Origin: Deltaproteobacteria bacterium
GTDB taxonomy: Bacteria > Myxococcota > JACRCW01
Length of the DNA stretch: 52,711 nt
Direction of reading: 5' to 3'
NCBI GenBank assembly: GCA_016218805.1
Contig: JACRCW010000143.1
Location: 1-52,711, forward strand
Under the pieces are notes generated by a model. The model ran no database searches and was not told the origin of the DNA. It saw nothing but the letters and a program-made list of their open reading frames with translations. The translations under genes were made by a program, and so were the position numbers. Below are positions 2 to 52,711 of the stretch, piece after piece (positions within the stretch are counted from its first letter, which is position 1; each line of letters opens with the position of its first letter).

Positions 2-736
<735 letters not shown>

Positions 737-4938: not shown

Positions 4939-4999
4939 ACCGTGTCCACCCGCGTGCGGGGGAGGCGGGCGTCGCCAGTCGGCGGGTGGGGGATGGTTG

Positions 5000-5067
5000 C
5001 GGCCCGCCGGCCCCTCACCCGCGGCCCTGGCGGGCCGCGACCTCTCCCCGGCTCCGCCGGGGAGAGG
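5000..5067. terminator. Two GC-rich hairpins between convergent genes (putative bidirectional terminator)
   Basis: GCGGCCCGCC(5000-5009)/GGCGGGCCGC(5030-5039), and an 11-bp perfect stem CCTCTCCCCGG(5041-5051)/CCGGGGAGAGG(5057-5067) with a 5-nt loop. These lie between the SPFH stop (4938) and the ychF stop (5075). Confidence 0.35.
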
Positions 5068-5074
5068 TGTTGCA

Positions 5075-6181: not shown

Positions 6182-6301
6182 CTGCCTTCCTGGGTGGTCC
6201 GGGGGGGGCCCCGGGGGGCGCGCCTTGTGGCCCACACGCGCGCCACTTTCAACTGTGCCGGGGTGTCGCCGCCGGGCGCGCTCCGGTATGAGACCGCGCC
6301 C

Positions 6302-19524: not shown

Positions 19525-19744
19525 GGGGTGGGGTACGCCTTCCGTGATCGCCCCCGGGGGGCCCGGGGGTCAACCACCCTACCAAGCCCGGCCGGGCGCG
19601 CCCCAGCCCCGCGCCACCGCGGGCGCCGGCGGGGACACGGCGGGTGAAGGGCGCCGGGCGGAATGGCACAGCCAACCCGGCGCCGGCGGGCTGTTTCCTC
19701 GCCCCCGAACGGCGGGCAGTCAGGAAGTGATCGGCGCGCTCGTC

Positions 19745-20304: not shown

Positions 20305-23300
20305 TCACCACGTGACCAGCCCCGCTGCTCGCCTGAGGATCACAACAACGTCTCCGGTATCAATGACGCCGTCGGAGGCAGGGGTTCCGCCGACCAGCGG
20401 GGCCACGTCGCCTCTCGCAAGATCCGTCGGCGATGCCACATCCAGTCCCGACGCGATGCGCAGGGCCTTGAGGCCATCCGCGTTGTCAACCCTGCCGTCT
20501 CCGTTGAGGTCGCCGTCGGGCACGGCGACAAGCTCGTCAGCCAGGCAGTCCGCCGTCGTTCCGCCGTTGAGGCCCGTGCAGGTCCAGGTCCATGGGCCGG
20601 CGCCACTGACGGTGGAGGCAACACCAGTCGCGCATAGGTCGCTGGCGGGCGCTTCGGTGTGCAGCGCGCTGCTTGCGGTACCGCACGCTCCATCCACCGC
20701 GTCGGCGGAAAAGTTGGCCGTGATCGTGTGGCTGGAGACCACATTGTCCAGGATCAGCGGGTTCAGGACAGTTGCGACAAACCCGTTGGTCCCAGTCCAG
20801 TTCAGGAAGTGGTAGCCCGAGTTCGCGGTAGCGGTCACCTGGGTCGTGCTGCCACCGTGGTTCACGGTCTGGCTGGTCGCTCCCGTGATCGTGCCGTTGC
20901 CGTCGCTCAGGAACGTCACGCCATAGGTCTGGATGTTGGCCGAGCAGTTCGCCGTGCTCCCGCCGTATTGCCCCGCGCAGGTCCAGCTCCAAGGGCCCGA
21001 TCCGGCAACGGCCGACGATACGCCGGAACTGCACAGACTCATCGGGGTCGTACCCGCGAGAGTCTGACCATGGTCAGCGCCGCACGCTCCGTTCACGCTG
21101 TCGTGCGCAAAGTTCGCCGTGATCACCATGGCCGCGGTCACGTTGGTCACCACCAGCGGGTTCGCCAACGTCGTCACAAAGCCGCTTGTCCCGGTCCACT
21201 CAACGAAGTGATAACCCGCTGCAGCCAGCGCTTCGATTTCAGCGGCATCGCCGCCATGATTCACGGTCTGGCTGGTTTCGCCCGCGATCGTGCCGTTGCC
21301 GTCGCTCAGGAACGTCACGCCATAGGTCTGGATGCTGGCCGAGCAGTTCGCCGTGCTCCCGCCGTATTGCCCCGCGCAGGTCCAGCTCCAAGGGCCCGAG
21401 CCGGCAACGGCTGACGAAACACCGGAACTGCACAGACTCGTCGGCGTCGTACCCGCAAGAGTCTGACCATGGTCAGCGCCGCACGCTCCGTTCACGTTGT
21501 CATGCGCAAAGCTCGCGGTGATCACCATGGCCGCGGTCACGCCGGTCACGACCAGAGGGTTCGCCAACGTCGTCACAAAGCCGTTTGTCCCGGTCCACTC
21601 AACAAAGTGATATCCCGCTGCGGCCCATGCTTGGACCTCAGAGGCATCGCCGCCATGATTCACGGTCTGGCTGGTCGTCCCCGTGATCGTGCCGTTGCCA
21701 TCGCTCTGGAACGTCACGGCATAGGTCTGGATGGCGGCCGAGCAGTCCGCCGTGGCCCCGCCGTACTGACCCTCGCAGGTCCAGGTCCAAGGACCCAAGC
21801 CGGCCGCAGCCGAGGCAATGCCGGCGCTGCACAGGTTCGTCGGCGAGGTGGTGCCGAGCGTCTGACCATGGTCAGCGCCGCACGCTCCGTCCACTCTGTC
21901 GTGGACGAAGTTCGCGGTGATCTCCATGGCTGCCGTCACGTTGGTCACCACGAGCGGGTTGGCCACCGTGGTCACAAAGCCGTTTGTCCCGGTCCAATCA
22001 ACGAAATGAAAACCCGCCGCAGCCACCGCGCCGACCTCCGAGGCGTCGCCGCCATGCACCACGGTCTGGCTGGTCACGCCGGTGACGGTGCCGTTGCCAC
22101 CGCTCTGGAAGGTCAGGGCATAACTCCGGATGTCGGCCAGGCAGGACGCCGTGCTCCCGCCGTACTGACCCGCGCACGTCCAACTCCAAGGGCCTGAGCC
22201 CGCCACAGCCGAGGCCGTGCCGGCGCCGCACAGGTCCACGGGCGTAGCGGTCAGGGCCGCGCCGTCATCTGCGCCACACTGGCCGTTCACAACGGCGACA
22301 AAGCTCGCCGTCACCTCACCGTCCGCGGTCACGGGCCCGGTCGAGCACGTATAGGTTCTTCCTGACAGGGTCCCGGTGCACCCGGTGACCACGTCCACGC
22401 CGTAGCCGTCGTCGGCCGTAATGGTGAAGGAGGCGGTCTGGTTGTTGGCCACGGCCTGCACTGTGCTGGGGCTGATGCTGCCGCCGCTTCCCGCCGAGGG
22501 CGTCACGTACCAAAGCAGCGTCATCGCTCCCGACGCGACCCAGTTGGAGCTCGCGCCACTCAAGGCGAAGTTGTTGAGTGTCCCATCCTGGGCGCTGGGT
22601 GAGGTCTGCCCCTTGAGCGTGGTTCGGGCCGCGTTGTCCCCGCCTGCAACACCTTCGTCGAACCGGTAGTACGCGACGAGACCGCTCTCGTCGTATGCGA
22701 CCGTGGTGAAGGCTGACGCGAGAATCTCCGCCTGGCTGCGCGCCGTGCTCCAGATACGCACCTCGTCGATGGCCCCCGCGAAGAACCGGTTGTTGAAGTC
22801 GGAGCCGATCATCACCGGATCGGTGTTCGCGGCTGGGACGAAGGACGTGCCCGTGAGCGCGTGCTCCAGGCCGTTCACGTAGACATGCCGGGCTGCGCCG
22901 TCATACACGGCGGCCACGTGCTGCCACCTGCCAGGATGCAGAATCCCCCCGGCGGTCTCCATGCCGTCGAAGTTGATGCCGTCGTAGTTGCCGCTTGCGC
23001 CAAGCCGGAGTGTGTACCCGTTGGCGGACGGTGAGTGGTACTTGGACACAATACCGGCCAGCCACATGAATGCGGCGGGTTTGATCCACGCCTCCACCGT
23101 GTAGCTCGTGGACAGGTCGAGCGCCGTGGCGTCGGGAATACTCACGTGGTCGTTCGTCCCGTCAAAATCCAGGGCGTTTCCCGGGGGCGTCACAAGGTCG
23201 GACAGCTCGGGCCAGGTCAGCTCAACCGCGCCGATATCGCAGGCGCCGTTCTGCGGTCGGACGATTCCTCGCTGGTCATTGTTGAGGCAACTGCCCGCAT

Positions 23301-24846
23301 TGATGGCGGGGCTCCCGGCGAGCAGGGAGCGCGTGAGCGTGAGGCCCCCGTTGTCCTGCAGCGGCCCGAGCAGCGGGGCCTGGCCGTAGACGTCATGGGT
23401 GGTGGTCCCCGTAATCGTGCAATCAGCCGTGTTCCCGATGAGATTGTAGTCGTTCGAGACCAGCGTCCCGCGGCAGTCAGGCCCGCCGCCGGTGGCGGTG
23501 TTGTCGGCGAGAATCGTGTTCTGCGCGCTCGTGCCGACCAGGGTTCCCCTGATGCCGCCGCCCACCTCAGCAGAATTGCCGCTGATCGTGGAGTCGACGA
23601 CGCTGAAAACGTCGTAGCTGAATACGCCGCCTCCGTTGACCGCCGCGGTGTTGCCGCTGATGGTCGAGGCGCTGACCTCGATCTTCCCCAGGTTGGTGAA
23701 GATGCCGCCGCCGCCGCGAGCCGAGTTGCCGCTGATCGTACATTTGATGAGCGCCACGTCGCGCGGCTCCTTCATTTCTCCCCACACGTACAGGCCCCCG
23801 CCCGTCCCCGATGCGGTATTGCCGCTGAGGGTGAGGCTGTCCGCAGCCAGGTAACCCGTGTTGTGGTAGATGCCGGCGCCGTCGGTGGCTGAGTTGTTGC
23901 TGACCGTGCCGCCCACAATGAGCCAACCGTTGACGTTGGTGATGCCTCCGCCCACTTGAGTTGCGGTGTTACCCGTGATGGTCCCGAAGGTCATGGTGGC
24001 GAACGCGCCATAGACCGTATTGGCCATGTAGATGCCGCCGCCCTGCTGCGCGCGGTTGCCGCTGATGGTCGTGGCCGGATTGATGCTGAACGACCCGGAG
24101 GACTTCAGGCCGCCGCCGTTGCCCGTGGCTTGGTTGCCGCTGATCTGGCTGCCGTTGAGCGTCATGCTGGCCGTGCTGGCAATGCCGGCGCCGTCAACCG
24201 CTGAATTGCCGGAGATGACCGAGTCAGTGACCACCGTGTTTGCTGAGACATCCAGACCACCGCCTTGGGCGGCGGAGTTGTTGCTGACAACGGACGTGGT
24301 CAGGGTGAGCGGCCCGGCGCTCAGGATGCCTCCGCCAAACCCCGTGGCGGTGTTTCCGGTGACCCGTGTGTTGACCAGCCGCAGGTTCCCGGTGGCGGTG
24401 TTGTAGATGCCGCCCCCGCCCGCATCCGCGGCGCTGTTCTGCACAACCACGTCCGTCAGGACGAGTGTCGCCCCAGTCAGAATGCCGCCGCCGGCGCTCG
24501 CGGCGCGGCCGTCCGCCACGGTGATGCCCGTAAGGCTTGCGGTGATGGCCTGCTCAAAGCCAAACACTATGGCGGCGTCGTTGCCGGAGACCGTGAGATT
24601 GGCTGACCCCGGCCCGGTGATGGTCAGATTCTTGTCCACGAGGATCCCGCCGCTCGTGAGGGTGATCGTGCCGGACACAGTGACCAGGACGGTGTCCCCC
24701 GCTGCCGCGTCGGCAACGGCCTGACGCAGGGACCCCGGTCCGGAGTCACCCGTGGTGGTCACCGTGTGCGTCGCGGCGTGAGCCGTGCCGCCGCAAACAC
24801 CGCTGCCGATGGTCAGCAGCGCGAGCGTCGAGAGTCCCCTTGTCAT
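20305..24846 (-). CDS. Giant secreted protein: right-handed beta-helix repeats + LamG/ConA-like domain + 5x tandem ~133-aa Cys-linker/Listeria-Bacteroides-type repeats + C-terminal dockerin-like Ca-binding module
   Basis: GAGGAAAG RBS and a signal peptide MTRGLSTLALLTIGSGVCGGTAHA. The beta-helix region repeats units like GGGI.N....L.N..V.GN.A. LamG: LDFDGTNDHVSIPD...YTVEAWIKP...WQHVAAVYDG...DEVRIWS. Repeat unit: ...CGADHGQTL...GPWTWTC.GQYGG.TA.C...IQTY.VTF.SDGNGTI.G.TSQTV.HGGDA.E..A.AA.GYHFV.WTG. The C-terminus DGDLNGDGRVDNADGL is dockerin-like. The start was trimmed to M39 of the table ORF. Confidence 0.8.
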   Translation of the reverse strand: MTRGLSTLALLTIGSGVCGGTAHAATHTVTTTGDSGPGSLRQAVADAAAGDTVLVTVSGTITLTSGGILVDKNLTITGPGSANLTVSGNDAAIVFGFEQAITASLTGITVADGRAASAGGGILTGATLVLTDVVVQNSAADAGGGGIYNTATGNLRLVNTRVTGNTATGFGGGILSAGPLTLTTSVVSNNSAAQGGGLDVSANTVVTDSVISGNSAVDGAGIASTASMTLNGSQISGNQATGNGGGLKSSGSFSINPATTISGNRAQQGGGIYMANTVYGAFATMTFGTITGNTATQVGGGITNVNGWLIVGGTVSNNSATDGAGIYHNTGYLAADSLTLSGNTASGTGGGLYVWGEMKEPRDVALIKCTISGNSARGGGGIFTNLGKIEVSASTISGNTAAVNGGGVFSYDVFSVVDSTISGNSAEVGGGIRGTLVGTSAQNTILADNTATGGGPDCRGTLVSNDYNLIGNTADCTITGTTTHDVYGQAPLLGPLQDNGGLTLTRSLLAGSPAINAGSCLNNDQRGIVRPQNGACDIGAVELTWPELSDLVTPPGNALDFDGTNDHVSIPDATALDLSTSYTVEAWIKPAAFMWLAGIVSKYHSPSANGYTLRLGASGNYDGINFDGMETAGGILHPGRWQHVAAVYDGAARHVYVNGLEHALTGTSFVPAANTDPVMIGSDFNNRFFAGAIDEVRIWSTARSQAEILASAFTTVAYDESGLVAYYRFDEGVAGGDNAARTTLKGQTSPSAQDGTLNNFALSGASSNWVASGAMTLLWYVTPSAGSGGSISPSTVQAVANNQTASFTITADDGYGVDVVTGCTGTLSGRTYTCSTGPVTADGEVTASFVAVVNGQCGADDGAALTATPVDLCGAGTASAVAGSGPWSWTCAGQYGGSTASCLADIRSYALTFQSGGNGTVTGVTSQTVVHGGDASEVGAVAAAGFHFVDWTGTNGFVTTVANPLVVTNVTAAMEITANFVHDRVDGACGADHGQTLGTTSPTNLCSAGIASAAAGLGPWTWTCEGQYGGATADCSAAIQTYAVTFQSDGNGTITGTTSQTVNHGGDASEVQAWAAAGYHFVEWTGTNGFVTTLANPLVVTGVTAAMVITASFAHDNVNGACGADHGQTLAGTTPTSLCSSGVSSAVAGSGPWSWTCAGQYGGSTANCSASIQTYGVTFLSDGNGTIAGETSQTVNHGGDAAEIEALAAAGYHFVEWTGTSGFVTTLANPLVVTNVTAAMVITANFAHDSVNGACGADHGQTLAGTTPMSLCSSGVSSAVAGSGPWSWTCAGQYGGSTANCSANIQTYGVTFLSDGNGTITGATSQTVNHGGSTTQVTATANSGYHFLNWTGTNGFVATVLNPLILDNVVSSHTITANFSADAVDGACGTASSALHTEAPASDLCATGVASTVSGAGPWTWTCTGLNGGTTADCLADELVAVPDGDLNGDGRVDNADGLKALRIASGLDVASPTDLARGDVAPLVGGTPASDGVIDTGDVVVILRRAAGLVTW
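20640..22440. repeat. About 4.5 tandem copies of a 399-bp unit (133 codons) inside the giant adhesin gene, highly similar at DNA level
   Basis: Near-identical segments recur with exact 399-nt spacing, e.g. gtctgaccatggtcagcgccgcacgctccgttcac at 21062 and 21461. The antisense ORFs start at 21034, 21433, 21832 and 22231, a constant +399 step. Outer copies are more diverged; the boundaries are approximate. Confidence 0.75.
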
Positions 24847-25170
24847 GGTTCTTTCCTCGTCATCAGAGCTTCCTGCGCAAACCGCGGGCAATCCTCGGTG
24901 GACACGCGCCGCTTTGCGGCGCAGGAGAGGATTGATGCGGGGGGAGTTGGCCTCTAACAACTCCAGCGTCGATCTTCAACAAACGCCTGCACTTGCCAAG
25001 CGCGGGTTGCTGGCGGCGCAAGGCGCCCCGAACCCACAGGGCGAGGATGGACGCTGGCGGCGCGCGGACACCCGGCGTCAGGGTCCGTTCCCGCGCCTGG
25101 CCGTGCCTGGCGGGGACGGGGGCGCCAAGCACATGACGCGCGCCGCGCGCCCACGGTAGGGTCCGCCGCC

Positions 25171-31249: not shown

Positions 31250-32665
31250 TCAGCCCATCAACGCGCGCGCCGCCGCCAGCGCCGTCTCCACAAACGGTGC
31301 GGGATACAGGCCCACGCCCACGACGCCCACGCACGCCACCGTCACGGCTGCCTTCATGGACAGCGCCATCGGCACGCGGCCTTCGGTGCCGGCCACGGGA
31401 CGCTCCATGTAGATGCTGCGCGCGACGCGCATGTAATAGAAAACGCTGACCACCGCGAGCACCGCGCCGAGCACGACGATCCACACGTAGCCCGCGCGGT
31501 ACGCCGCCACGAACACGCCCACCTTGGCCCAGAAACCCGCCACAAACGGGATGCCGCCGAGCGACAGCAGGAACAGCAACATCGCCATGGCGAGGCCCGG
31601 GTTGCGGCGCGACAGTCCCTTGAACGCGTCCAGGTGGTCGCTGCCGGACGCATCCTCAATCACGGAAGCCACCGCGAACGCGCCCATGTTCGTGAACAGG
31701 TACGCCACCAGGTAAAACAGAAGCATCCCCAGCCCGTCAGGCGTGACCAACCCTATGCCCAGCAGCATGGTCCCCATCTGGCCAATGCCACTGTACGCCA
31801 GCAGCCGCTTCACGCTGGTCTGCGGAATGGCCAGCACGTTCCCCACCACCATGGTGATCACGCACATGACAATCACCGCCGGCGCCCACGTTGCCTTCTG
31901 GCCCGGCAGCGCCTCAATGAAGATGCGGATCAGCGCGGCAAAGCCCGCCGCCTTGGGCGCCACCGAGAGGAACGCGACAAACGGCGTGGGCGCGCCTTCA
32001 TACGTATCCGGCACCCACATGTGGAACGGGACGACGCCAATCTTGAACCCCAACCCCGCCAGCGTGATGACCAGGCCCGGAACCACCATGGGGTTGCCCG
32101 CCTTGGCCGCCGCGGTGACGCCGGACAGCATGGTGGTGCCCGCCGCGGCGAACAGCAGCGACAGGCCGTACAGCGTCACCACCGACGACACCGCGCCCAC
32201 CAGGTAGAGCTTGAGGGCCGCCTCGGCGGACCGCTCGGACTTGCGCATGGCGGCCAGCACGTACAGCGGCATGCTCATCAGTTCAAAACTGACGACGATG
32301 AAGATGAGTTCGCGCGCGCTGGCCAGCAGCGTCATCCCCAGCAGGCTGGAGAGCACCAGCAAGTGGTACTCGCCCTGGCGGCGGGGGAAGAACCGGTCCG
32401 CGTGGTCCATCCCAATGAGCACGCCCAGCGCACCCGCGGCCAGGAACACGCGCTTGAGGTACAGCGCCACCGCGTCGTTCACAAACGCGCCACCAAACGC
32501 GGTGCCCTGCACGTCCAGCACAAAGCTCGCCGCGAGCGTGATGAGCGCGCCTGCGCACGCCACCACCGCAATGCCGCGCTTGTCCTCCGCGGGCAGCAGC
32601 AGGTCCACCACAAACACCAGCAGCAGGATGCAGGCGAGGAGGATGTCGAGCGCAAGCGGCATCAT
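31250..32665 (-). CDS. nuoN: NADH-quinone oxidoreductase subunit N
   Basis: 471 aa, polytopic antiporter-like subunit (…FELMSMPLYVL…, …GFKIGVVPFHMWVPDTYEGAPTP…). GAGGTGA RBS. It is the last gene of the nuo operon. Confidence 0.9.
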   Translation of the reverse strand: MMPLALDILLACILLLVFVVDLLLPAEDKRGIAVVACAGALITLAASFVLDVQGTAFGGAFVNDAVALYLKRVFLAAGALGVLIGMDHADRFFPRRQGEYHLLVLSSLLGMTLLASARELIFIVVSFELMSMPLYVLAAMRKSERSAEAALKLYLVGAVSSVVTLYGLSLLFAAAGTTMLSGVTAAAKAGNPMVVPGLVITLAGLGFKIGVVPFHMWVPDTYEGAPTPFVAFLSVAPKAAGFAALIRIFIEALPGQKATWAPAVIVMCVITMVVGNVLAIPQTSVKRLLAYSGIGQMGTMLLGIGLVTPDGLGMLLFYLVAYLFTNMGAFAVASVIEDASGSDHLDAFKGLSRRNPGLAMAMLLFLLSLGGIPFVAGFWAKVGVFVAAYRAGYVWIVVLGAVLAVVSVFYYMRVARSIYMERPVAGTEGRVPMALSMKAAVTVACVGVVGVGLYPAPFVETALAAARALMG

Positions 32666-32674
32666 GGCATCACC

Positions 32675-34234
32675 TCACGGCACCAGCGCGGGCCCAGCGG
32701 CCGCGACCGAAGTTCCGACGACACGGGACAGGTACTCCACGGTGGCCTTGTCCACACCGGTCAGCGCCAGGTTGGGCCAGAAGCCAAACAGGACCAGGCA
32801 GACCGCCAACATGCTGATGGCCACCCACTCGGTCCCGCGCGCGTCCTCCAGGTGTTCAAAGCGCCCTTCCGGGAACGGGCCCCAGAAGATCTGCCGCGTG
32901 GCCTTGAGCACGTAGATGGCCGTGATGAACGCGCCAAGGATGCCCGGCAGCATCCACCACCCGTGCGCGCTCTTGTACGCGCCCAGGAACACCAGGAACT
33001 CCGCCACAAACCCCGCCGTTCCCGGCAGCCCCAATGACGACAGGCACCCCAGCGTGAACACCACGGAGATGCCGGGCATGAACTTCGCGAACCCGCCCAT
33101 GGAAGCGACGTCGCGCGTGTGGCTCTTCTCGTAGATGAGGCCCACCAGGGCAAAGAACGCGCCCGTCATGATGCCGTGGGCAAACATCTGGAACACCGCG
33201 CCGTTCCACCCGCTCACCGTGAGCGTGGCGGCGCCCAGCATCACCACGCCCATGTGTGACACCGACGAGTACGCAATGATGTACTTGAGGTCCTTCTGGC
33301 TCATGGCGCTGAACGCGCCGTACACCACGTTGATGGACGCCACGATGCCGACGACCAGCGCCCAGGCCTGCGCGCCCTCCGGCAGCATCACCATGCCCAC
33401 ACGGATCACGCCAAACGCGCCCAGCTTCATCAGCACGCCGGCGTGCAGCATGGAGACCGCGGTGGGCGCGGCCGCGTGACCGTCGGGGGACCAGGTGTGG
33501 AACGGGAACAGGCCGGCCAGCGTGCCAAAGCCCACCCACAGCGCGGGGAACACCCACAGCTGCGTGTCGCGTGACATCACCATGTTGCCGCGCAGCAACT
33601 CCATGTTGAACGTCTTGCCACCGCCCGCCATGTACAGCGCCAGGATGCCCACAAGGATGAACGCGGAGCCCATCAGCAGCATCAGGGTCAGCTTCATGGC
33701 GGCGTATTCGCGCCCGCCGATGTCCAGGCGCTTGAGGAACGGCGCCAGCGGGCCCTGGATCTCCACCTTCTTGGTGGAACCCCAGATGCCAATGAGCAGG
33801 TACATCGGCAGCACGGCAATCTCGTAGAACAGGAAGAACACAAACATGTCCAGGCTGACAAACACGCCGAACACGCCCGCGGACAGCACCAGCAGCAGCA
33901 CGTAGAAGTCGCGGTCACGGTCCTTCACCGTCCAGGACGCCCAGCAGCCCGCAAACAGGATGATGCCAGTCAGCAGCAGCAGTGACAGCGACCACCCGTC
34001 GACAGCGACCGCGTAGGAAATCCCAAGCGACGGCACCAGCGGCACAACCTTCTGCATCTGCAGGCCGCCGCGCGCCAGGTCATACTGCAGGATGGTGGCA
34101 ATGGCGCCGGCCAGCGAGACACCCGCACCGGTGATGGCCACCAGGCGGGTGGCGGCGCGCGCGCGGTCCGGCAGCGCGATGATCACCATCGCGGCGATGA
34201 ACGGGGCAAGGACGATCAGCGTCAGCAGGTGCAT
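32675..34234 (-). CDS. nuoM: NADH-quinone oxidoreductase subunit M
   Basis: 519 aa, reading ...FFLFYEIAVLPMYLLIGIWGS...FPFHTWSPDGHAAAPTAVSMLHAGVLMKLG... (NuoM/ND4 family). Confidence 0.9.
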   Translation of the reverse strand: MHLLTLIVLAPFIAAMVIIALPDRARAATRLVAITGAGVSLAGAIATILQYDLARGGLQMQKVVPLVPSLGISYAVAVDGWSLSLLLLTGIILFAGCWASWTVKDRDRDFYVLLLVLSAGVFGVFVSLDMFVFFLFYEIAVLPMYLLIGIWGSTKKVEIQGPLAPFLKRLDIGGREYAAMKLTLMLLMGSAFILVGILALYMAGGGKTFNMELLRGNMVMSRDTQLWVFPALWVGFGTLAGLFPFHTWSPDGHAAAPTAVSMLHAGVLMKLGAFGVIRVGMVMLPEGAQAWALVVGIVASINVVYGAFSAMSQKDLKYIIAYSSVSHMGVVMLGAATLTVSGWNGAVFQMFAHGIMTGAFFALVGLIYEKSHTRDVASMGGFAKFMPGISVVFTLGCLSSLGLPGTAGFVAEFLVFLGAYKSAHGWWMLPGILGAFITAIYVLKATRQIFWGPFPEGRFEHLEDARGTEWVAISMLAVCLVLFGFWPNLALTGVDKATVEYLSRVVGTSVAAAGPALVP

Positions 34235-34235
34235 G

Positions 34236-36062
<1,827 letters not shown>

Positions 36063-36073
36063 TTGTCTCCTCC

Positions 36074-36379
36074 TCAGCCGTGCATGGAGGCAGCCTGGTC
36101 CACGTCAATGGACCGGCGGCTACGGTGGAGGAAGATGACAATGGCCAGCCCCACCACCACCTCCGCGACCGTCAGCGCGATGGCGAACAGCGCGAACGCT
36201 TCGCCGCGGCCATCCCCCAACGAACGCCCGATGGCGACGAGGTTCACGTTCACCGCGTTGGCCATCAGCTCCACGCTCAGAAGAATTCCCAGCACGTTCT
36301 TGCGCGTCAGCACCCCGTACAGGCCCATGCTGAACATCCCCGCCGCCAGCAGCATGTAGGACGAGACGGGCACCATCAC
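36074..36379 (-). CDS. nuoK: NADH-quinone oxidoreductase subunit K
   Basis: 101 aa with 3 TM helices (MMVPVSSYMLLAAGMFSMGLYGVLTRKNVLGILLSVELMANAVNVNLVA…). Confidence 0.85.
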   Translation of the reverse strand: MMVPVSSYMLLAAGMFSMGLYGVLTRKNVLGILLSVELMANAVNVNLVAIGRSLGDGRGEAFALFAIALTVAEVVVGLAIVIFLHRSRRSIDVDQAASMHG

Positions 36380-36873
36380 GCATCCTCCTTCCGCGCAATG
36401 ACGATGGCCCCGATCATCGTCGCCACCAGCAGCACGCTGAGCACCTCAAACGGCAGCGCGTAATCCACCAAGAACCGTTCACCCAGCACCTTGGTGGCCG
36501 AGCGCTGGGCCGGCTGCGCATAGGACGCGGGCATCCGCAGGATGAACGCCGTCAGCAGGCCGAACACCGACAGTGAGGCCAGCGCGGCGCGCACGCGGTT
36601 GCCGCTTTCGTGCGGGATGCGCTCGCCGGTGAGCCGCTTGGTGAGCAGCACTGCAAAGATCATCAGCACCGCCACGCCACCCGCGTACAAAAGCACCTGC
36701 ACCGCGGCGATGAACTCCGCCTGCAGCTGCACGTACACGCCGGCGGTGACCACCAGGGTCAACGCCAGCCACAGCACCGAGTGCACCAGGTCATCGGAAG
36801 TGACCACGCACCACGCACACGCGAGCAACGCGCTGGCGAGCAGCGCGAAGGGAACCATCGGGAGCCAGCTCAT
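36376..36873 (-). CDS. nuoJ: NADH-quinone oxidoreductase subunit J
   Basis: 165 aa, NuoJ/ND6-like membrane protein. It overlaps nuoK by 4 nt. Confidence 0.85.
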   Translation of the reverse strand: MSWLPMVPFALLASALLACAWCVVTSDDLVHSVLWLALTLVVTAGVYVQLQAEFIAAVQVLLYAGGVAVLMIFAVLLTKRLTGERIPHESGNRVRAALASLSVFGLLTAFILRMPASYAQPAQRSATKVLGERFLVDYALPFEVLSVLLVATMIGAIVIARKEDA

Positions 36874-37520
36874 GCGCCCTCCTTGGCCCCGGCGGGCGGC
36901 GGCGGCGTTTCCTTGGGGGGTTCAACGGGCTTGGCCGCGTCCACGGAAGCGGCGGGCGCAACTTCGGCGGGTTTGGGTTTGGCCACCTTGGCGGGCTTGG
37001 CCGGCACCTCGCCCTCCGCGCCAGGCGGCGGCTTGGGCAGGCCGTACTTGGTGTCATGCATCTCCACAAACCGGGAGCCAATGCCCCACGCCTTCTCCAG
37101 CTTTTCATTGGCAAACAGTTTGTCCTTGGTCAGCACCAGGTCCTCGCGTGAGAACCCGGGGATCTCCTGCGTGCGGCACATGGTGATGGCGTCCTCGGGA
37201 CACACCTGCACGCAGAGTTCACAGAAGATGCAGGCCTGGAGGTTGAGCGTGAAGTCCTCAATGTAGCCGCGCTTCTTGCCGGTGACGGGGGACTCCTTCT
37301 TCCCCAGCGCCTTGATGCTGATGACCTGCGAGGGACAGATGTTCTCGCACATCAGACAGCCGATGCAGGCCTCCTCGCCGTGCTCGTTGTGCAGCAGCGC
37401 GAACGTGGCGCGGGCGCGCGGCGGCCGCGTCCGCTTCTGGAACGGGTGCAGCATCGTCACGGGCGGACGGATCACGTTCCGCATGGTCTCGCCCATGGCC
37501 CGCAGCATGTGCAGGATCAC
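36870..37520 (-). CDS. nuoI: NADH-quinone oxidoreductase subunit I (2x[4Fe-4S] ferredoxin) with Pro/Ala/Lys-rich C-terminal extension
   Basis: CIGCLMCENICP and CIFCELCVQVCP cluster motifs. The preferred start is GTG at 37520, overlapping the nuoH stop as GTGA, with GGGAGG 6 nt upstream. The C-terminal ~60 aa are PKPPPGAEGEVPAKPAKVAKPKPAEVAP... The table ORF extends to 37604. Confidence 0.8.
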   Translation of the reverse strand: MILHMLRAMGETMRNVIRPPVTMLHPFQKRTRPPRARATFALLHNEHGEEACIGCLMCENICPSQVISIKALGKKESPVTGKKRGYIEDFTLNLQACIFCELCVQVCPEDAITMCRTQEIPGFSREDLVLTKDKLFANEKLEKAWGIGSRFVEMHDTKYGLPKPPPGAEGEVPAKPAKVAKPKPAEVAPAASVDAAKPVEPPKETPPPPAGAKEGA

Positions 37521-38509
37521 GGCGTGCCTCCCGGGAAGAAGCGCACCCACACCGCGGCCCACGCCAGCGCCACCAGTGACAGCGGGAGGAACCACTTCCA
37601 GCACAGGCGCATCAGCTGGTCACTGCGCAGCCGCACCCAGCTCCAGCGGATCCACGTGATGAGCGTGAACACCAGGAACGTCTTGATGAGCGTCCAGTGC
37701 AGCCCGGGCAGGAACGGCCCGTCCCACCCGCCCATGAACAGCGTGGCCACCACAATGGAGGTGATGATGGTGTGCAGGTACTCCGTCAGCAGGAACATGC
37801 CGAATTTCATTCCCGTGTATTCCACGGAAACCCCGGCAATCAGCTCGCTCTCCGCCTCCGGCACGTCAAACGGGATGCGGTTGGCCTCCGCCAGGGAGGC
37901 CAGCAGGAAGATGACACCGGCCAGCAACCCGGGCCCGGCGGGCCACCACAGGTACCAGCGGTAGCCGGCCTGCGCGTTGGCAATCTCCGTGATGTTCATG
38001 GAGCCGGCCAGCACCACGGGCACCAGCGCGCTGAGCACCAGCGGGATTTCATACGCAATGGACTGCGCCACCGCGCGCATGCCGCCCAGCAGCGCGTACT
38101 TGTTGTTGGAGGCCCAGCCCGCCATCCACAGCGGGATGACGGTCATGGAGCCCAGCGCGATCATGAAAAGCACGCCAATGTCCAGGTTGGCCACCGCAAG
38201 TGTCGACGTGATGGGGACCACCGCGAGGGTGCCCAGCACGCAGAACAGCACCATGGGCGGCGCCATGTTGTACAGGACCTTGTCCGCGCGGGCCGGCGTG
38301 AGGTCCTCCTTCTGAAACATCTTGAACGCGTCCGCCAGCGGCTGCAGCAGGCCGTAGGGCCCCACCACGTTCACGCCGTAGCGGTTCTGCAGCAGCGCGG
38401 AGAACTTGCGCTCCCACCAGATGGACCACGCGGCCGCGCCCAGCAGCACGCCCAGCAGCACCGCCCCCACCACCAACCCGTGGAGCCAGGGATTGCCAAA
38501 GAGGATCAT
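37517..38509 (-). CDS. nuoH: NADH-quinone oxidoreductase subunit H
   Basis: 330 aa, NuoH/ND1 family (…ADAFKMFQKEDLTP…, …RSDQLMRLCWKWFLP…). It overlaps nuoD by 4 nt. Confidence 0.9.
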   Translation of the reverse strand: MILFGNPWLHGLVVGAVLLGVLLGAAAWSIWWERKFSALLQNRYGVNVVGPYGLLQPLADAFKMFQKEDLTPARADKVLYNMAPPMVLFCVLGTLAVVPITSTLAVANLDIGVLFMIALGSMTVIPLWMAGWASNNKYALLGGMRAVAQSIAYEIPLVLSALVPVVLAGSMNITEIANAQAGYRWYLWWPAGPGLLAGVIFLLASLAEANRIPFDVPEAESELIAGVSVEYTGMKFGMFLLTEYLHTIITSIVVATLFMGGWDGPFLPGLHWTLIKTFLVFTLITWIRWSWVRLRSDQLMRLCWKWFLPLSLVALAWAAVWVRFFPGGTP

Positions 38510-39750
38510 CGGTCCGCCTCCCCCATGATGGGATCCAGGCTGCCCAGGATGGTGACCACGTCGGAAATGGTGGCGCCGGGGAGCAGGTACGGAGTCAACG
38601 CCAGCGCGTGGAAGGACGGCGGGCGGATCTTCAGGCGGTACGCGTTGGGCGTACCGTCGGAGATGACGTAGGTGCCCAGCTCGCCGCGCGGGCTCTCAAT
38701 GCCCACGTACACCTGCCCCGCCGGCGGCTTGAACCCGCCCGGCAGTTTGACGAACTTACCACCCATCACCGGTCCCTCGGGCAGGCCGGACAGCAGCGTG
38801 GTGGCCAGGCGCAGCGCTTCGCGCGTTTCCGCCATGCGCACCTTGAACCGCGCAAACGCATCGCCCGTGTATTCCACGAACGTCTTCACCTCGATCTCGT
38901 TGTAGGCGGCGTAGGGCCGCGCCTTGCGCAGGTCCCAGTCCACGCCGGAAGCGCGCAGCGCGGGGCCGCCCACGCCCACCTCCTGCGCCAGCACGGCATC
39001 CAGCACACCCACGTTGACGGAGCGGGCAAGGAACACCCCGTTGTCAATGAGCATCGCCTCGGTCTCTTCCAAGCGCCCCAGGATGTGCTTGGCGGTGGCG
39101 TTGACCTTCTCTGCCCAGCCGGCCGGGACGTCGTGACGGACGCCGCCCACCTGGTGGTAGTTGTAGTGGAACCGCGCGCCGGTAAGTTCTTCAAAGAGGT
39201 CCAGGATCAATTCGCGTTCCTGGAACGTGTACATGAACACGCTGGCGCCGCCGCCAATACCCCCGCCAATGTCCAGGCAGAACGTGCCCAGCCACAGCAG
39301 GTGGGACGCGGCGCGCTGCAGCTCCGCGCAGATGGAGCGGAGGTACCGGGCGCGGCGGGGCACCTCCACCTTGCCCAGCGCCTCAAACGCCATGTTGACG
39401 GCCAGCTCGTTCATCATCGGTGACACGTAATCGTTCTTGTCGACGATGGGCGTGATCTGCACGTAGGTGAGCTTCTCGCACAGCTTCTCCACGCCGCGGT
39501 GCAGGTAGCCCAGGTACGGGACCGCCTTGACCACCACTTCGCCGTCCAGGTGGAGCTTCACGCGGAACACGCCGTGCGTGGAGGGATGCTGCGGCCCCAT
39601 GTTGAGGGCCATCAGGTCACCCTCGGGGTCATAGCTGGCCAGGTCCAGGTGCGGGTTGGCGCGGGGCCGGCGCACCGGTTGCCGGGGGGTGGCGTCTTGC
39701 GGTTGCGGCGTGCCTCCAGGCTCATGGGCCGCCGCGGCGTGGGTGTCCAA
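38506..39750 (-). CDS. nuoD: NADH-quinone oxidoreductase subunit D (49 kDa) with ~45-aa N-terminal extension
   Basis: ...MALNMGPQHPSTHGVFRVKLHLDGEVV...RASGVDWDLRKARPYAAYNE... The N-terminal extension MDTHAAAAHEPGGTPQPQDATPRQP is kept because the nuoC stop abuts it. An alternative start at MALNMGPQHP is possible. Confidence 0.85.
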   Translation of the reverse strand: MDTHAAAAHEPGGTPQPQDATPRQPVRRPRANPHLDLASYDPEGDLMALNMGPQHPSTHGVFRVKLHLDGEVVVKAVPYLGYLHRGVEKLCEKLTYVQITPIVDKNDYVSPMMNELAVNMAFEALGKVEVPRRARYLRSICAELQRAASHLLWLGTFCLDIGGGIGGGASVFMYTFQERELILDLFEELTGARFHYNYHQVGGVRHDVPAGWAEKVNATAKHILGRLEETEAMLIDNGVFLARSVNVGVLDAVLAQEVGVGGPALRASGVDWDLRKARPYAAYNEIEVKTFVEYTGDAFARFKVRMAETREALRLATTLLSGLPEGPVMGGKFVKLPGGFKPPAGQVYVGIESPRGELGTYVISDGTPNAYRLKIRPPSFHALALTPYLLPGATISDVVTILGSLDPIMGEADR

Positions 39751-39752
39751 GG

Positions 39753-40238
39753 CTACCTCCAGGGCTTGTGCGGCGTGTCAATGGCGTAGTCACGGTGCAG
39801 CGGGTGACCCTCCCAGTCCTCCGGCAACATGATGCGCCGCAGGTCCGGGTGTCCGTCGAACACCGGCCCGACGAGGTCATACGCCTCGCGCTCCTGCCAG
39901 TCCGCGCCGGCCCAGGACGGGAAGACGCTGGGGACCTTCTCATCCAGCGCCACGCGGCAGCGCCACGTGAGCTCCTGGTTCTTCTCCAGGTTCCGCGCGT
40001 GGTACGCCACGACATAGGACGCCGGCACCGCGGGGATGACCGTGTCGCCCTTCTTCTTCTCCGGCTCGGCGGGATGGTGCGCGGCCGTGATGTACGTGAG
40101 CCACGCAAACCCCAGCTCATGCCGCACGGTGCGCGCGAATTCCGCCAGTTTCTCGCGCGGGACCAGCATGCCCTCCGGCGCCTCGGCCAGGCCAAAGCGC
40201 TCCGCCAGCAGCGCGGCGGGTTCCACCGTGTCAGTCAT
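39753..40238 (-). CDS. nuoC: NADH-quinone oxidoreductase subunit C (30 kDa)
   Basis: 161 aa, reading ...LTWRCRVALDEKVPSVFPSWAGADWQEREAYDLVGPVFDGHPDLRRIMLPEDWEGHPLHRDY. Confidence 0.85.
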   Translation of the reverse strand: MTDTVEPAALLAERFGLAEAPEGMLVPREKLAEFARTVRHELGFAWLTYITAAHHPAEPEKKKGDTVIPAVPASYVVAYHARNLEKNQELTWRCRVALDEKVPSVFPSWAGADWQEREAYDLVGPVFDGHPDLRRIMLPEDWEGHPLHRDYAIDTPHKPWR

Positions 40239-40954
40239 GGCTGCTCCTTGCGCTCAATGGCCACCGCGCCCGGCGGCAGGATGGGCAGGCGGCGCGTCAT
40301 GGCACCACCCAGGTCCATGCCCATCACGCTCTCCATCTGGGCCGCGGTGATGGCGGGATCACGGTCCGCGTCCCCCAGCCGCTTCACGTCCGGAATGATG
40401 GACTTTGCCGTTTCCGGGCGTTTCTCCGGCTCCACCCACTTGCCCTGGCGCTTGAGGCGGATCTTCTCCTGCAGGCGCCGGATGCCGTCCACCAACCACT
40501 CCGGGTTGGGCGGACAGCCGGGCACGTACACGTCCACCGGCATGAACGTGTCCACGCCGGGGACCACGCTGTAGATATCCCGGTAGAAATCACCGGAAAT
40601 GGCGCAGGACCCCATGGCAATGGCCCACTTGGGCTCCGGCATCTGGTCCCACAGCTTCTTGACCCGCGGCGCCATCTTCACGGTGATGGTGCCGGCAATG
40701 ATCATCACGTCCGCGTGGCGCGGGCTGGCGCGCACCACCGCGCCAAAGCGGTCCAGGTCCATGCGCGCGGTGAACCCCGCCATGAACTCAATGCCGCAGC
40801 AGGACGTGGCCATGGGGAAGATGTGCGGGGAATTCTCGCCACCCCAGTCCAGCACCTTGTCCGCCGCGGTCACCAGCAGGTCCAGCCCGGGCATCCGCTC
40901 CACGTACGCGAACGGTTCGTGCGCGTAATTCCGGTCATCCTTTTTCACGGCCAT
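40235..40954 (-). CDS. nuoB: NADH-quinone oxidoreductase subunit B (20 kDa, Fe-S N2)
   Basis: ...PMATSCCGIEFMA...IAMGSCAISGDFY...VYVPGCPP are the Cys ligands for cluster N2. The start is ATG at 40954 (or GTG at 40948 forming GTGA with the nuoA stop). A C-terminal extension ~80 aa long follows. Confidence 0.85.
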   Translation of the reverse strand: MAVKKDDRNYAHEPFAYVERMPGLDLLVTAADKVLDWGGENSPHIFPMATSCCGIEFMAGFTARMDLDRFGAVVRASPRHADVMIIAGTITVKMAPRVKKLWDQMPEPKWAIAMGSCAISGDFYRDIYSVVPGVDTFMPVDVYVPGCPPNPEWLVDGIRRLQEKIRLKRQGKWVEPEKRPETAKSIIPDVKRLGDADRDPAITAAQMESVMGMDLGGAMTRRLPILPPGAVAIERKEQP

Positions 40955-41307
40955 TGCAGCGCCCCTTTCCGGATGGCGTAGGCCCAGCCCGTGAGCAGCA
41001 CGCCCACAAACAGGAGCATCTCCCACAGCGCTGTATCGCCCAGCGTCCGGATGTTCAGGGCCCACGGGAAGAGGAACACGGCTTCCACGTCAAACAGCAC
41101 AAACACCAGCGCAACAAGGTAGTAGCGCGGGTGGAACTTGATCCACGCGCCGCCGTCGGGCTCTTCGCCGCATTCATAGGTTGCGGTGCGGTCCGGCGAC
41201 GTGGTGCGGGACTTCACGGCGGTCACCAACGTGACCAGGATGACGCCGAACGCGGCTGCCGCCGCGATGGCAAGGAACGTGATGGCTGCGGACCACTGCT
41301 CCGTCAT
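40945..41307 (-). CDS. nuoA: NADH-quinone oxidoreductase subunit A
   Basis: 120 aa, MTEQWSAAITFLAIAAAAAFGVILVTLV...YECGEEPDGGAWIKFHPRYYLVALVFVLFDVEAVFLFPWA. It is the C-terminal part of the long table ORF 40945..42513. Confidence 0.85.
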   Translation of the reverse strand: MTEQWSAAITFLAIAAAAAFGVILVTLVTAVKSRTTSPDRTATYECGEEPDGGAWIKFHPRYYLVALVFVLFDVEAVFLFPWALNIRTLGDTALWEMLLFVGVLLTGWAYAIRKGALQWP

Positions 41308-49795: not shown

Positions 49796-50824
49796 ATGCA
49801 GGGCTTCCTGGTGGCGGGTTTGCTGGCCTGGGTGTGGGTGGTGCCCGGGGCGCCGCCGGCGCGCGGCAAGGCGCCCCGGGAGCGGCCGGCCGCCGGCGGG
49901 CAGGGCGGCAAGGCGCAGGAGCCCGTGCCGGCACTGGCCACCCCCGTCCGCAAGGTGCGCACGGCCGCGCGCACGCCGTCCGCCGCAGAAATCCCGCAGA
50001 TGCTGCAACAGGCGCAGCAGGCGTGCGAATCCTTTGACCTGGACCGCTGTGTGGAACTGGGCCTGGCGCTGCTGGGTGCACCGGAGTTGCAGAGCGAGCA
50101 GCAGGCCGCCGTGTACACGCACCTGGCCGGGTCCTACGCCGTCATGGGGGACCCCACGGAGAGCGAGCGGTACTACCGCCTGCTGTTGCGCCTCAAGCCG
50201 GACTTTGACCTCCCGGCGGAGACACCGCCCAAGATCCTGGTGGTGTTCCGCAACGTGCAGGCGGAGGAGCAGCGCATCCGTGACGCCATGAAGGAGGCGG
50301 AGAAGAAGCGCCTGCGCGAGGGCATTGCCCTGGAGGTGAAGGCGCCCAAGCGGACCGTGGGCGGCCAGCCCCTGGTGATTGCCGCGCTGGTGAGCAGCAA
50401 GCAGGGCGGCGTGGAATCTGTGGCGCTGCGGTTCCGGAAAGACCCCGCCGAGCAATTCGCAACGCTGCCCATGGTGAAGGCCGGCAAGGCCCGCTACGAG
50501 GCGACCTTTCCCGCGGTGCAGACGGCCGGGGAGCAGGTCCGGAAGTGGGAGTACTTTGTCACCGTGCACGGCGAGGGTTCCGAGACCCTGAAAGCGGAAG
50601 GATCGCCGGAGGCGCCGCTGGCCGTGGAACTCAGCGCCGGCGCGGTGCCCAGCCCGCCGCTGTGGCGCCAGCCGCGCCTGTGGGTGGCCGTGGCGGTGCC
50701 CGCCGTCTCCGCGCTGACCGCTGCGGGCGTGCTCACCGCGGCGGGACTGGGCGGCTCGGTGGCCGCCGTGTGGCTGTATTCCATCCAACCCCCGCGCGGC
50801 GCGCTGGGCACGCAGCGGCTGTGA
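49796..50824 (+). CDS. Secreted or membrane-anchored protein with one TPR-like segment and a C-terminal TM helix (function unknown)
   Basis: MQGFLVAGLLAWVWVVPGAPPA looks like a signal or anchor sequence. ...AVYTHLAGSYAVMGDPTESERYYRLLLRLKPDFD is TPR-like. The C-terminus is LWVAVAVPAVSALTAAGVLTAAGLGG. It is divergent from the kinase across 101 bp. An upstream TTG start at 49760 is possible. Confidence 0.55.
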   Translation: MQGFLVAGLLAWVWVVPGAPPARGKAPRERPAAGGQGGKAQEPVPALATPVRKVRTAARTPSAAEIPQMLQQAQQACESFDLDRCVELGLALLGAPELQSEQQAAVYTHLAGSYAVMGDPTESERYYRLLLRLKPDFDLPAETPPKILVVFRNVQAEEQRIRDAMKEAEKKRLREGIALEVKAPKRTVGGQPLVIAALVSSKQGGVESVALRFRKDPAEQFATLPMVKAGKARYEATFPAVQTAGEQVRKWEYFVTVHGEGSETLKAEGSPEAPLAVELSAGAVPSPPLWRQPRLWVAVAVPAVSALTAAGVLTAAGLGGSVAAVWLYSIQPPRGALGTQRL

Positions 50825-52191
50825 GACCCCTGGCCGCCTCCCTGGCTTGTCTTGCCACCGGCGCGGCCACGCTGGGCGTGCTGGCCGCGTGTGACCCCGC
50901 CAACGAGCGCGCCTGTGATCCCGGCGCCACCCAGCCCTGCACCTGCCCGGACGGCACAGCGGGCCAGGCCACGTGCTGGTACGACGGCTACCGCTGGTCC
51001 GAGTGCCACTGCGGCCTCACGGGCGCCAGTTCCGGCGGACCGTCATCCTCCGCCGCGGGCACCTCGGCCCCTTCCGGCTCGTCGGGCCCCGCTTCGGGGG
51101 CGTCCTCGGGCCCGCCGGCGTCCTCCGCGGCGTCCGGTGCCGCGGACGGCGGCGCCTGCCTTCCCTCCGTGACCGTGTTGTGCAGCAGCCCGTCCGGAGA
51201 CGGCACGGATCACGTGCTGACCACCACCGGCAGCGGCCCGCGCGGCATCACCGGCCTCATTGAAGTGGGCATGACCCGCGCGCAGGTGAGCGCCGCCATT
51301 GGGGACGCGGAGAACATCCTGCCACCGGACCCCCTGGCCGCCAGCACGCTGCAGGTCAGCTACTGCGCGCGCCGGCTGTACGTGGAGTACGCGGACGGCG
51401 TGAACGCGGACGGCGGTCTCAACGGCTACCTCACGGACGACGACAGGGTGGCGCGCGTTTCCACCATTGCAGGGTTTGCAGGACACGCGGACACGGGGCT
51501 GGTCCCCGGGGCCACCCGTGCCGCCGCGCGCGCGCTGTACGCCACGGACGCGGGTCCATGGTCCAATGACCGGGAACACCCGGGCGGCCTGCGGGACCTG
51601 TGGCCCGCCACGGGCGTGGCCGCGCTGTACGGTGACGGCGGCGTCCGCTCCATCTCCGTGCACGCGCCCAACCTGCTGGCGGCGGGGGACCTGGCCTACC
51701 CGGTGTTCGCCACGCGTGAGGTGGTCATTGGCACCACGCGCATCTCAGCGCGGCTGGGAGGGCTGGAGGCGGCCGGCAGCACGTTTGGAGCGGTGAAGGC
51801 GGTGCTGGGCCCGGCTGACGAAGAGGGCTTTGGCCAGCTGGGGGATTTCCCCATTGCGGAACTGTCCTACGTGAACCTGGGGATGCGCTTTGCAGCGCAG
51901 GCCGGCGGCGGGCCGCTGGATGACCAGACGGTGATCATCATCATCCTGGTGGCGCCGTTCCAGGGGCTGGACCCCGCCGGGCAATTGGGCCTGGGGAGCA
52001 CGCGCGCGGAGTGGGATTCCGCAGGCTTCACTCCCATGGGCCCCGTGTCACAGGTGGGCCTGACGTTGGAGCGCTACCGGGTGGGCATGGTGTTCGGCGG
52101 GCTGCCGTTGCTGGTGGCGGTGTCCTTCCAGCGGGGCGCGGACTGCGTGGAACGCGCCGCCGCCATTGTCATTGACCCGCCGGCCATTTGA
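50821..52191 (+). CDS. Lipoprotein with Cys-rich N-terminal module and Ser/Gly-rich linker (function unknown)
   Basis: The GTG start overlaps the upstream stop (GTGA). The signal peptide (M)RPLAASLACLATGAATLGVLAAC carries a LAAC lipobox. Then CDPANERACDPGATQPCTCPDGTAGQATCWYDGYRWSECHC (8 Cys), an S/G/A/P-rich linker, and a ~300-aa globular domain. Confidence 0.6.
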   Translation: MRPLAASLACLATGAATLGVLAACDPANERACDPGATQPCTCPDGTAGQATCWYDGYRWSECHCGLTGASSGGPSSSAAGTSAPSGSSGPASGASSGPPASSAASGAADGGACLPSVTVLCSSPSGDGTDHVLTTTGSGPRGITGLIEVGMTRAQVSAAIGDAENILPPDPLAASTLQVSYCARRLYVEYADGVNADGGLNGYLTDDDRVARVSTIAGFAGHADTGLVPGATRAAARALYATDAGPWSNDREHPGGLRDLWPATGVAALYGDGGVRSISVHAPNLLAAGDLAYPVFATREVVIGTTRISARLGGLEAAGSTFGAVKAVLGPADEEGFGQLGDFPIAELSYVNLGMRFAAQAGGGPLDDQTVIIIILVAPFQGLDPAGQLGLGSTRAEWDSAGFTPMGPVSQVGLTLERYRVGMVFGGLPLLVAVSFQRGADCVERAAAIVIDPPAI

Positions 52192-52220
52192 GGCGCCGCC
52201 CAGCCGCCCACCGCGGTCGC

Positions 52221-52462
52221 CAGCGGTCGGCGGGTGTGTCCCCAGCGGTCGGCGGGTGCGTCTCCAGCGGTCGGCGGGTGTGTCCCCAGCGGTCGGCGGG
52301 TGTGTCCCCAGCGGTCGGCGGGTGCGTCTCCAGCGGTCGGCGGGTGCATCTCCAGCGGTCGGCGGGTGCATCTCCAGCGGTCGGCGGGTGCATCTCCAGC
52401 GGTCGGCGGGTGCATCTCCAGCGGTCGGCGGGTGTGTCCCCAGCGGTCGGCGGGTGCCTCAC
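52221..52462. repeat. Array of 11 contiguous 22-bp direct repeats (consensus CAGCGGTCGGCGGGTG-YR-TC-YC), with 1-2 degenerate units extending to ~52500
   Basis: Read directly from the sequence. Units sit at 52221, 52243, 52265, 52287, 52309, 52331, 52353, 52375, 52397, 52419 and 52441. Three variants occur (..GTGTGTCCC x4, ..GTGCGTCTC x2, ..GTGCATCTC x4). There are no spacers, so it is not a CRISPR array. Confidence 0.85.
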
Positions 52463-52691
52463 CGCTCCGAGGGTGCGGCTCCAGCGGTTTGCCGGGCTCA
52501 CGCCCAGGGCGTTTCACGGTGCCACCGCGGACAGCACGCCAGGGGGTGTGATGCGGGATGGTTGTAGAACGGGAACGACAGGGGTGCCATGGGTTTGGCA
52601 TGTCTCGCGGCCCCCTGACAAAGCGGCCCGCCTGGCGACGTCGGCCCCGCGTTTCGTTCCGGCTGGTCGCCATGAAACGGAGGCCACAACC

Positions 52692-52711
52692 ATGGGAGAG
52701 CACACCGCCGC
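52692..52711 (+). CDS. 5' end of an unidentified gene running off the window
   Basis: aaacGGAGGccacaaccATGGGAGAGCACACC: a GGAGG RBS lies 8 nt before the ATG at 52692. Only 7 codons are visible. Confidence 0.25.

Follow-up and report, generated by a model that had tools for sequence, protein, structure and literature searches.

The window analysed here, i.e. the whole stretch of 52.7 kb, is a complete contig of a short-read MAG, and the tandem array that is the subject of this analysis lies 220-250 bp from one of its ends. Pfam matches of GC3-supported ORFs revealed a complex I (nuo) operon at 31253-41089 as well as genes for RsmB, NAD kinase, a MoxR/DUF58 pair, a GGDEF response regulator, four Ser/Thr kinases and large surface proteins, and none of the 28 contig ORFs scanned against Pfam contained Rep, Par, Tra or Cas domains. 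Since housekeeping genes are present and rep, par and tra genes were not found, the contig is chromosomal. The best relatives of the kinase neighbouring the array locus were found in Myxococcota MAGs.

The protein encoded immediately upstream of the array starts with MRPLAASLACLATGAATLGVLAAC, which we judged by eye to be a signal peptide with an L-A-A-C lipobox, in line with the first-pass annotation, which had placed the repeats downstream of a lipoprotein gene. The GC content of this gene by codon position is 0.70/0.61/0.87. The protein is listed in NCBI as 'MAG: hypothetical protein HY904_21965 [Deltaproteobacteria bacterium]' and had no match in Pfam. A word-indexed protein search returned the query itself as the lone match, probably due to flooding of the index by the low-complexity Ser/Gly/Ala linker of the protein, and a HMMER search of 1.84 billion proteins recovered a family with 17 cluster representatives below an E value of 1e-10. 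The predicted lipoprotein is, as judged from these similarities, a member of a small uncharacterised family and not an orphan. It also carries a Cys-rich N-terminal motif (approximately aa 19-67) that matches multi-repeat proteins as well. Moreover, the GTG start of its gene overlaps the TGA stop codon of a preceding gene for a 354-aa protein (GTGA, 50821-50824), which suggests that the two genes may be translationally coupled. The array begins 30 nt past the stop codon of the lipoprotein gene in a spacer of 500 bp that separates two co-directional genes, and it ends 190-230 bp upstream of an ATG at 52692. This ATG is preceded by a GGAGG motif and agrees with the gene start that had been proposed about 190 bp past the array. 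Neither sigma-70-like promoters nor intrinsic terminators were detected between 51900 and 52711 on either strand (0 sites), and no site with the sigma-54 consensus was found near the array. The features of the locus are listed in Table 1.

Table 1. Coordinates of the array and of its flanking features, in positions of the window.
Feature	Position or length	Strand	Description
Putative lipoprotein gene	50821-52191	+	456 aa, GTG start; ORF and codon-position GC
C-rich segment ACCCGCCGGCC	52175-52185	+	Last codons of the lipoprotein gene; can pair with GGTCGGCGGGT of the core at 10 of 11 positions
Inverted core-like copy CCGCGGTGGGCGGCTG	52201-52216	-	Matches the core at 13 of 16 nt; 4 nt separate it from unit 1
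Array unit	22 bp	+	Invariant 16-nt core CAGCGGTCGGCGGGTG followed by a 6-nt tail
Two decayed units	52463-52481 (19 nt), 52482-52503 (22 nt)	+	16 and 15 consensus positions matched
Downstream gene start	52679-52711	+	GGAGG at 52679-52683, 8-nt spacer, ATG at 52692; 20 nt in contig

The array consists of 11 head-to-tail units of 22 bp that occupy positions 52221-52462 on the plus strand in perfect 22-bp register. Its core is present in exactly 11 copies, starting at 52221, 52243 and so forth up to 52441 at steps of 22 bp and on the plus strand only. Likewise, a single array with a score of 399 was called by Tandem Repeats Finder at 52216-52488, comprising 12.5 copies of a 22-bp period with 90% matches, and it is the only one in the window that combines a period of 20-30 bp with more than three copies. 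These results bear out the earlier description of 11 head-to-tail units of 22 bp. An extent from position 52211 had been given for the array, and an array is indeed found there, but its first full unit starts 10 nt later, at 52221. The tails of the units fall into three types, A (TGTCCC), B (CGTCTC) and C (CATCTC), and follow each other in the order A-B-A-A-B-C-C-C-C-A, with CCTCAC in unit 11, exactly as had been read before. When the 22-nt pattern was searched with up to three mismatches, all 11 matches in the 52.7 kb fell within the array, while 0.15 matches were expected from 100 shuffled sequences, none of which reached 11. Two worn units extend the repeats to approximately position 52503. 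Since their numbers of consensus matches correspond to the 95th to 99th percentile of random 22-mers drawn from the window, the 3' side of the array has indeed decayed, as the first-pass annotation had stated.

Variation among the 11 copies is confined to unit positions 17, 18 and 21, and the variants require at least five substitution events. In a Monte Carlo simulation in which events were distributed uniformly over the 22 positions, the probability that all events fall inside a span of 5 nt was 0.009 for the complete set of units and 0.13 for the three events that remain once the terminal unit is left out. When the array is compared with itself, the run of four C units overlaps exactly over 86 nt at a shift of 22, and the repetition of the A-B pair produces an exact match of 61 nt at a shift of 66. 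Core and unit are without dyad symmetry, and, by inspection, the unit lacks four closely spaced G-tracts, its runs of G and C being mixed, a composition that gives little reason to expect a G-quadruplex.

The 5' flank of the array is related to the core in inverted orientation. The inverted copy at 52201-52216 is the sole minus-strand match among 15 matches to the core with up to three mismatches, and apart from this flanking copy no match at this threshold was found in the contig outside the array. Over the whole window 4.75 such matches are expected, and we estimate the chance that one of them would lie directly beside the array to be on the order of 0.002. Folded as RNA, the segment 52170-52262 is predicted to form one long nested hairpin (52175-52257) across the stop codon of the lipoprotein gene (-54.2 kcal/mol, z=-2.79), whose energy was equalled by 2 of 200 shuffled sequences. 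In this structure positions 52175-52185, the outer 5' arm, pair with unit 2, and the inner segment at approximately 52195-52215 pairs with unit 1, which suggests that the repeat unit may be an amplified 3' arm of the hairpin. The inverted core-like segments of the flank and the position of the array at the contig end had not been mentioned in the earlier annotation.

Searches outside the window recovered no comparable array. No match to two adjacent units was found in JGI metagenome contigs, the 16-mer core matched viral contigs of IMG/VR at most once per stretch and formed no arrays there, and a blastn search of the plasmids in PLSDB gave no match. In the GTDB representative genomes the 17-mer CCAGCGGTCGGCGGGTG had at least 120 chance matches in unrelated GC-rich genomes; among the matches listed, one locus (L121) contained two copies of the 17-mer 5.5 kb apart in a duplicated segment, and none were in tandem. 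A comparison at the level of the locus was possible for the two homologous loci that were available, L145 and L146, with protein identities of 38-69%. A three-sequence alignment gave two loci, of which L146 was usable, and an alignment of 11 sequences was without a stretch that was conserved enough for a profile-based search. The closest available relative, L145, is an ENA MAG contig labelled Myxococcota_JACRCW01, and it retains the order of the kinase gene (69% identity), the gene for the 354-aa protein (59%) and the lipoprotein gene (44%, E=4e-76). In L145 the lipoprotein gene is separated from a convergent TPR gene downstream by a plain spacer of 139 bp that is free of tandem repeats, and in L146, a JGI contig with a lipoprotein of 38% identity, the next gene follows after a 60-bp spacer without an array. 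The absence of the array from both homologous loci points to a lineage-specific origin and suggests that the array may have arisen in the source lineage. A tblastn comparison of the L145 genes past the lipoprotein homologue with the window gave nothing significant, and alignment of the non-coding flanks scored 25, compared to a mean of 20 and a maximum of 31 for shuffled sequences. The non-coding flanks thus no longer align, which places the insertion point beyond base-by-base reconstruction.

Several features of L145 itself deserve mention. The gene pair of the window is syntenic there together with a divergent gene for a PEGA-domain Ser/Thr kinase, and the N-terminus of the lipoprotein homologue was apparently cut by the gene caller. 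Between the two conserved genes a gene for 117 aa was called on the opposite strand (7706-8059), overlapping two copies of a 33-bp repeat (7736-7802). This gene is likely a mis-call that probably extends over the low-complexity N-terminal region of the lipoprotein homologue.

The array exists, carries no signal of coding or of RNA structure (see below), is absent from the two homologous loci and has a 5' flank complementary to its core. Its tandem register, together with the missing coding and RNA signals, the absence at homologous loci and the lack of copies where we searched, favors the interpretation that the array is a non-coding, lineage-specific minisatellite of the VNTR type between two chromosomal genes of an uncultured Myxococcota-like bacterium, seeded from a hairpin arm and expanded by slippage, to which we assign a probability of about 0.7. 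Of the options raised by the first-pass annotation, a lineage-specific minisatellite or slippage product is therefore the one favored by the lack of an array at two related loci and elsewhere in the sequences searched. Minisatellites consist of head-to-tail units of approximately 10-100 bp, a range that includes the 22-bp period with its 11 exact cores. Similar to the VNTR loci used in MLVA and MIRU-VNTR typing and to promoter repeats of Mycobacterium tuberculosis (PMC12817950), the array is composed of head-to-tail units of some tens of bp and is intergenic in a GC-rich genome; no further copy of it was found in the 52.7-kb contig. It shares with them the arrangement of variants in blocks, decayed units at the edge and slipped-strand mispairing as a possible origin. 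In contrast to these loci its core is unusually uniform, with 11 of 11 copies identical over 16 nt, and it is known from one genome. For GC-rich bacteria there is ample documentation of intergenic and promoter tandem repeats that vary in copy number, and the copy number of promoter tandem repeats can alter expression (PMC12817950).

With regard to the formation of such a minisatellite, we infer the slippage mechanism, the origin from a hairpin arm and the neutrality of the array. A GC-rich stem-loop just past, and partly over, the stop codon of the lipoprotein gene would have come first, and its 3' arm plus a few bases, amounting to 22 nt, would then have been duplicated. Replication slippage or unequal recombination could have expanded the duplicated unit. 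The run of four C units and the repeated A-B pair may represent traces of recent duplications of units or blocks, with the 86-nt and 61-nt self-matches as possible footprints of one-unit and three-unit duplications, respectively, and the worn units at the 3' edge would be older copies in which homogenisation had ceased. If the array has any effect, it is most likely a passive one: the array may alter how far apart the two genes lie or how long the 3'-UTR is, or its units may compete for pairing with the 5' arm of the hairpin. Since intergenic minisatellites are common in GC-rich bacteria, the importance of the array is probably very small. It is nevertheless a possible VNTR strain marker for the source population, variation in copy number between strains being the operational hallmark of a VNTR, and it would be an example of a tandem array whose first unit came from one arm of a hairpin close to a stop codon.

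Two properties of the array run counter to the minisatellite interpretation, namely the invariance of the 16-nt core, with all substitutions at positions 17, 18 and 21, and the 22-bp period, which is close to two helical turns and thus has the geometry of protein-binding arrays. The uniformity of the core could reflect constraint, which is unexpected for a purely neutral repeat, or it could be the result of few events that were spread by duplication, and the Monte Carlo statistic for it is weak. Both properties would be expected if the array represented 11 in-phase protein-binding sites of 16 nt that are bound cooperatively and are either regulatory for the gene at 52692 or similar to plasmid iterons or partition centromeres, an alternative that we consider unlikely. 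It draws further support from the presence, 190-230 bp past the array, of a plausible start codon with a well-formed Shine-Dalgarno sequence and from the iterons of R6K and pPS10, which have the same 22-bp length (PMC4980987); the gene that begins at this codon is truncated by the contig end after 20 nt. However, core copies were not found singly elsewhere in the 52.7 kb, the array is absent at L145 and L146, the core lacks dyad symmetry, and neither a sigma-54 nor a sigma-70-like promoter was detected. The proposal in the first-pass annotation that the array might serve as binding sites for a regulator finds no support in the surroundings of the array, where no regulator gene, sigma-54 promoter, DnaA box or AT-rich region was found, but the restriction of variation to three tail positions and the truncation of the downstream gene leave it some probability.

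The comparison with plasmid iterons is instructive in this respect. Iterons are direct repeats of approximately 17-22 bp in one orientation, with seven 22-bp copies in R6K, four in pPS10 and units of 17-19 bp in RK2, F and P1 (PMC4980987), and the array lies within this range. It resembles them in being composed of contiguous 22-bp direct repeats of one orientation with a conserved core upstream of a gene, but its 11 copies exceed the three to seven given for the plasmids in that review (PMC4980987), and it resides on a chromosomal replicon with no Rep family among the 28 ORFs scanned, no DnaA boxes nearby and no AT-rich unwinding element. Two matches to the DnaA box TTATCCACA with up to one mismatch, at 5853 and 32748, correspond to chance level, so that the nearest one is approximately 20 kb away from the array, and the GC content is at least 0.64 in every 100-bp window between 50500 and 52711. 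An iteron-type origin was therefore rejected on the basis of the chromosomal contig, the lack of a DnaA box nearby, a GC content that never falls below 0.64 and the lack of similarity to any plasmid in PLSDB. Partition centromeres, such as sopC of F with 12 repeats of 43 bp and parC of R1 with 11-bp repeats, likewise comprise roughly ten direct repeats that share one orientation and adjoin an operon; here, however, the contig contains no parA, parB, parM or parR, and the genes around are chromosomal housekeeping genes. A more specific version, in which the array is a chromosomal landing pad similar to an iteron or centromere array for a protein encoded past the contig end, with the core under selection and the tail drifting, appears quite improbable. 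It would nonetheless represent a type of array, for regulation or segregation, that is not known from Myxococcota, and the array would gain in importance if the downstream gene encoded a protein that binds the invariant core.

It is also very improbable that an assembly artefact, produced by a de Bruijn cycle or by the threading of mixed strains near the contig end, accounts for the array as such or just for its length and the order of its variants. Apart from the location 220-250 bp from the end of a MAG contig, such an artefact is suggested by the length of the array (242-290 bp), which exceeds that of typical short reads and is thus a known source of errors in the length and copy number of tandem repeats (PMC6868369). 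The Logan assembly of run SRR12113407 contains the same lipoprotein gene, and its contig halts 8 nt into unit 2. This second assembly nevertheless reproduces the left junction and 1.4 units, which indicates that the reads contain the repeat, and a break in unit 2 is expected of a small-k unitig graph that enters a tandem repeat. The three variants in non-periodic order and the decayed units at the edge are, moreover, unlike the product of graph cycling, and assemblers are more prone to collapse tandem repeats than to create them (PMC6868369). Since every k-mer of at least 87 nt in the array region is unique, reads of 150 nt combined with a large k could in principle resolve the order of the units. 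The existence of the array is accordingly supported, while its 11 copies and the order of the variants rest on one short-read MAG contig. In more general terms, ends of MAG contigs coincide with such repeats, and copy numbers need spanning reads.

Least probable of all is a function of the array as transcribed sequence, be it a translated 22-aa repeat read across the three reading frames or a 3'-UTR RNA that is structured or acts as a protein sponge. The array is probably co-transcribed with the lipoprotein gene, as it starts only 30 nt past the stop codon, the hairpin at its 5' edge is significant, and ORFs of 105-209 aa run through it on both strands, as had been observed before. However, GC3 marks the lipoprotein frame, with values of 0.88-0.95, only as far as 52191, and from there on the three phases are equal, at approximately 0.75, through the array and beyond. 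ORFs crossing the array had no match in Pfam, and no homologue of its translations was found with a 200-aa query from both strands among 5.8 billion proteins, which indicates that no indexed assembly contains a gene-called ORF over a similar array. A coding repeat was rejected on these grounds and because the period of 22 is not a multiple of three, confirming the earlier judgement that the array is unlikely to be coding. With respect to RNA, Rfam searches at E values up to 10 returned only sub-threshold hits, the best of which, Pab160, reached 25.6 bits compared to a gathering threshold of 47.4, and the 381-nt array region as a whole folds worse than dinucleotide shuffles (z=+2.88 on the plus and +1.74 on the minus strand), so that a known structured RNA family was rejected as well. 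Such weak folding is expected since direct repeats have no complementary partner. GGA-type CsrA motifs were not visible in the unit.

Two known classes of repeats were also considered and rejected. Similar to REP/BIME elements and 3' stem-loops, the locus has a GC-rich hairpin after and over a stop codon in a spacer between co-directional genes, but only units 1 and 2 pair with the 5' arm and the other nine are without a partner; the units are not palindromic, the array is under-structured relative to shuffled sequences, and the contig contains no dispersed copies. CRISPR arrays, in which repeats of approximately 23-47 bp alternate with unique spacers of similar length, share with the array the regular spacing of identical repeats separated by short variable stretches, but here the 'repeat' has 16 nt and the 'spacer' 6 nt with three variable positions, the units abut without true spacers, as the first-pass annotation had recognized, no cas genes or Cas domains were present in the scanned ORFs, and no Rfam CRISPR-DR model matched even at E values up to 10.

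Further observations concern other parts of the contig. A partial ORF with a Phage_integrase domain (2-733, plus strand), followed by a rhodanese-like gene at 824-1162, is located at the contig end opposite to the array, and both contig ends thus adjoin repeat-prone or mobile sequence. An ORF of 1633 aa on the minus strand (14671-19569) has a strong coding signature, with a GC1 of 0.83 and a GC3 of 0.92, and is without a Pfam match at E<=1e-5. On the plus strand, positions 4775-10219 form one stop-to-stop ORF of 1815 codons that overlaps the preceding Band_7 gene and contains the Toprim and Topoisom_bac domains of a type IA topoisomerase at aa 513-1112 and the DEAD, Helicase_C, RecQ_Zn_bind and HRDC domains of a RecQ helicase at aa 1168-1811. 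From this domain order it looks like a TopoIII-RecQ fusion, preceded by approximately 500 N-terminal residues without a Pfam match. A second tandem repeat, with a period of 399 bp, 3.4 copies and 85% identity, is found at 20861-22212 inside a minus-strand ORF (20308-24975) of 1556 aa with InlB B-repeat (Flg_new_2) and Laminin_G_3 domains, and this repeat is a coding repeat of a putative surface protein.
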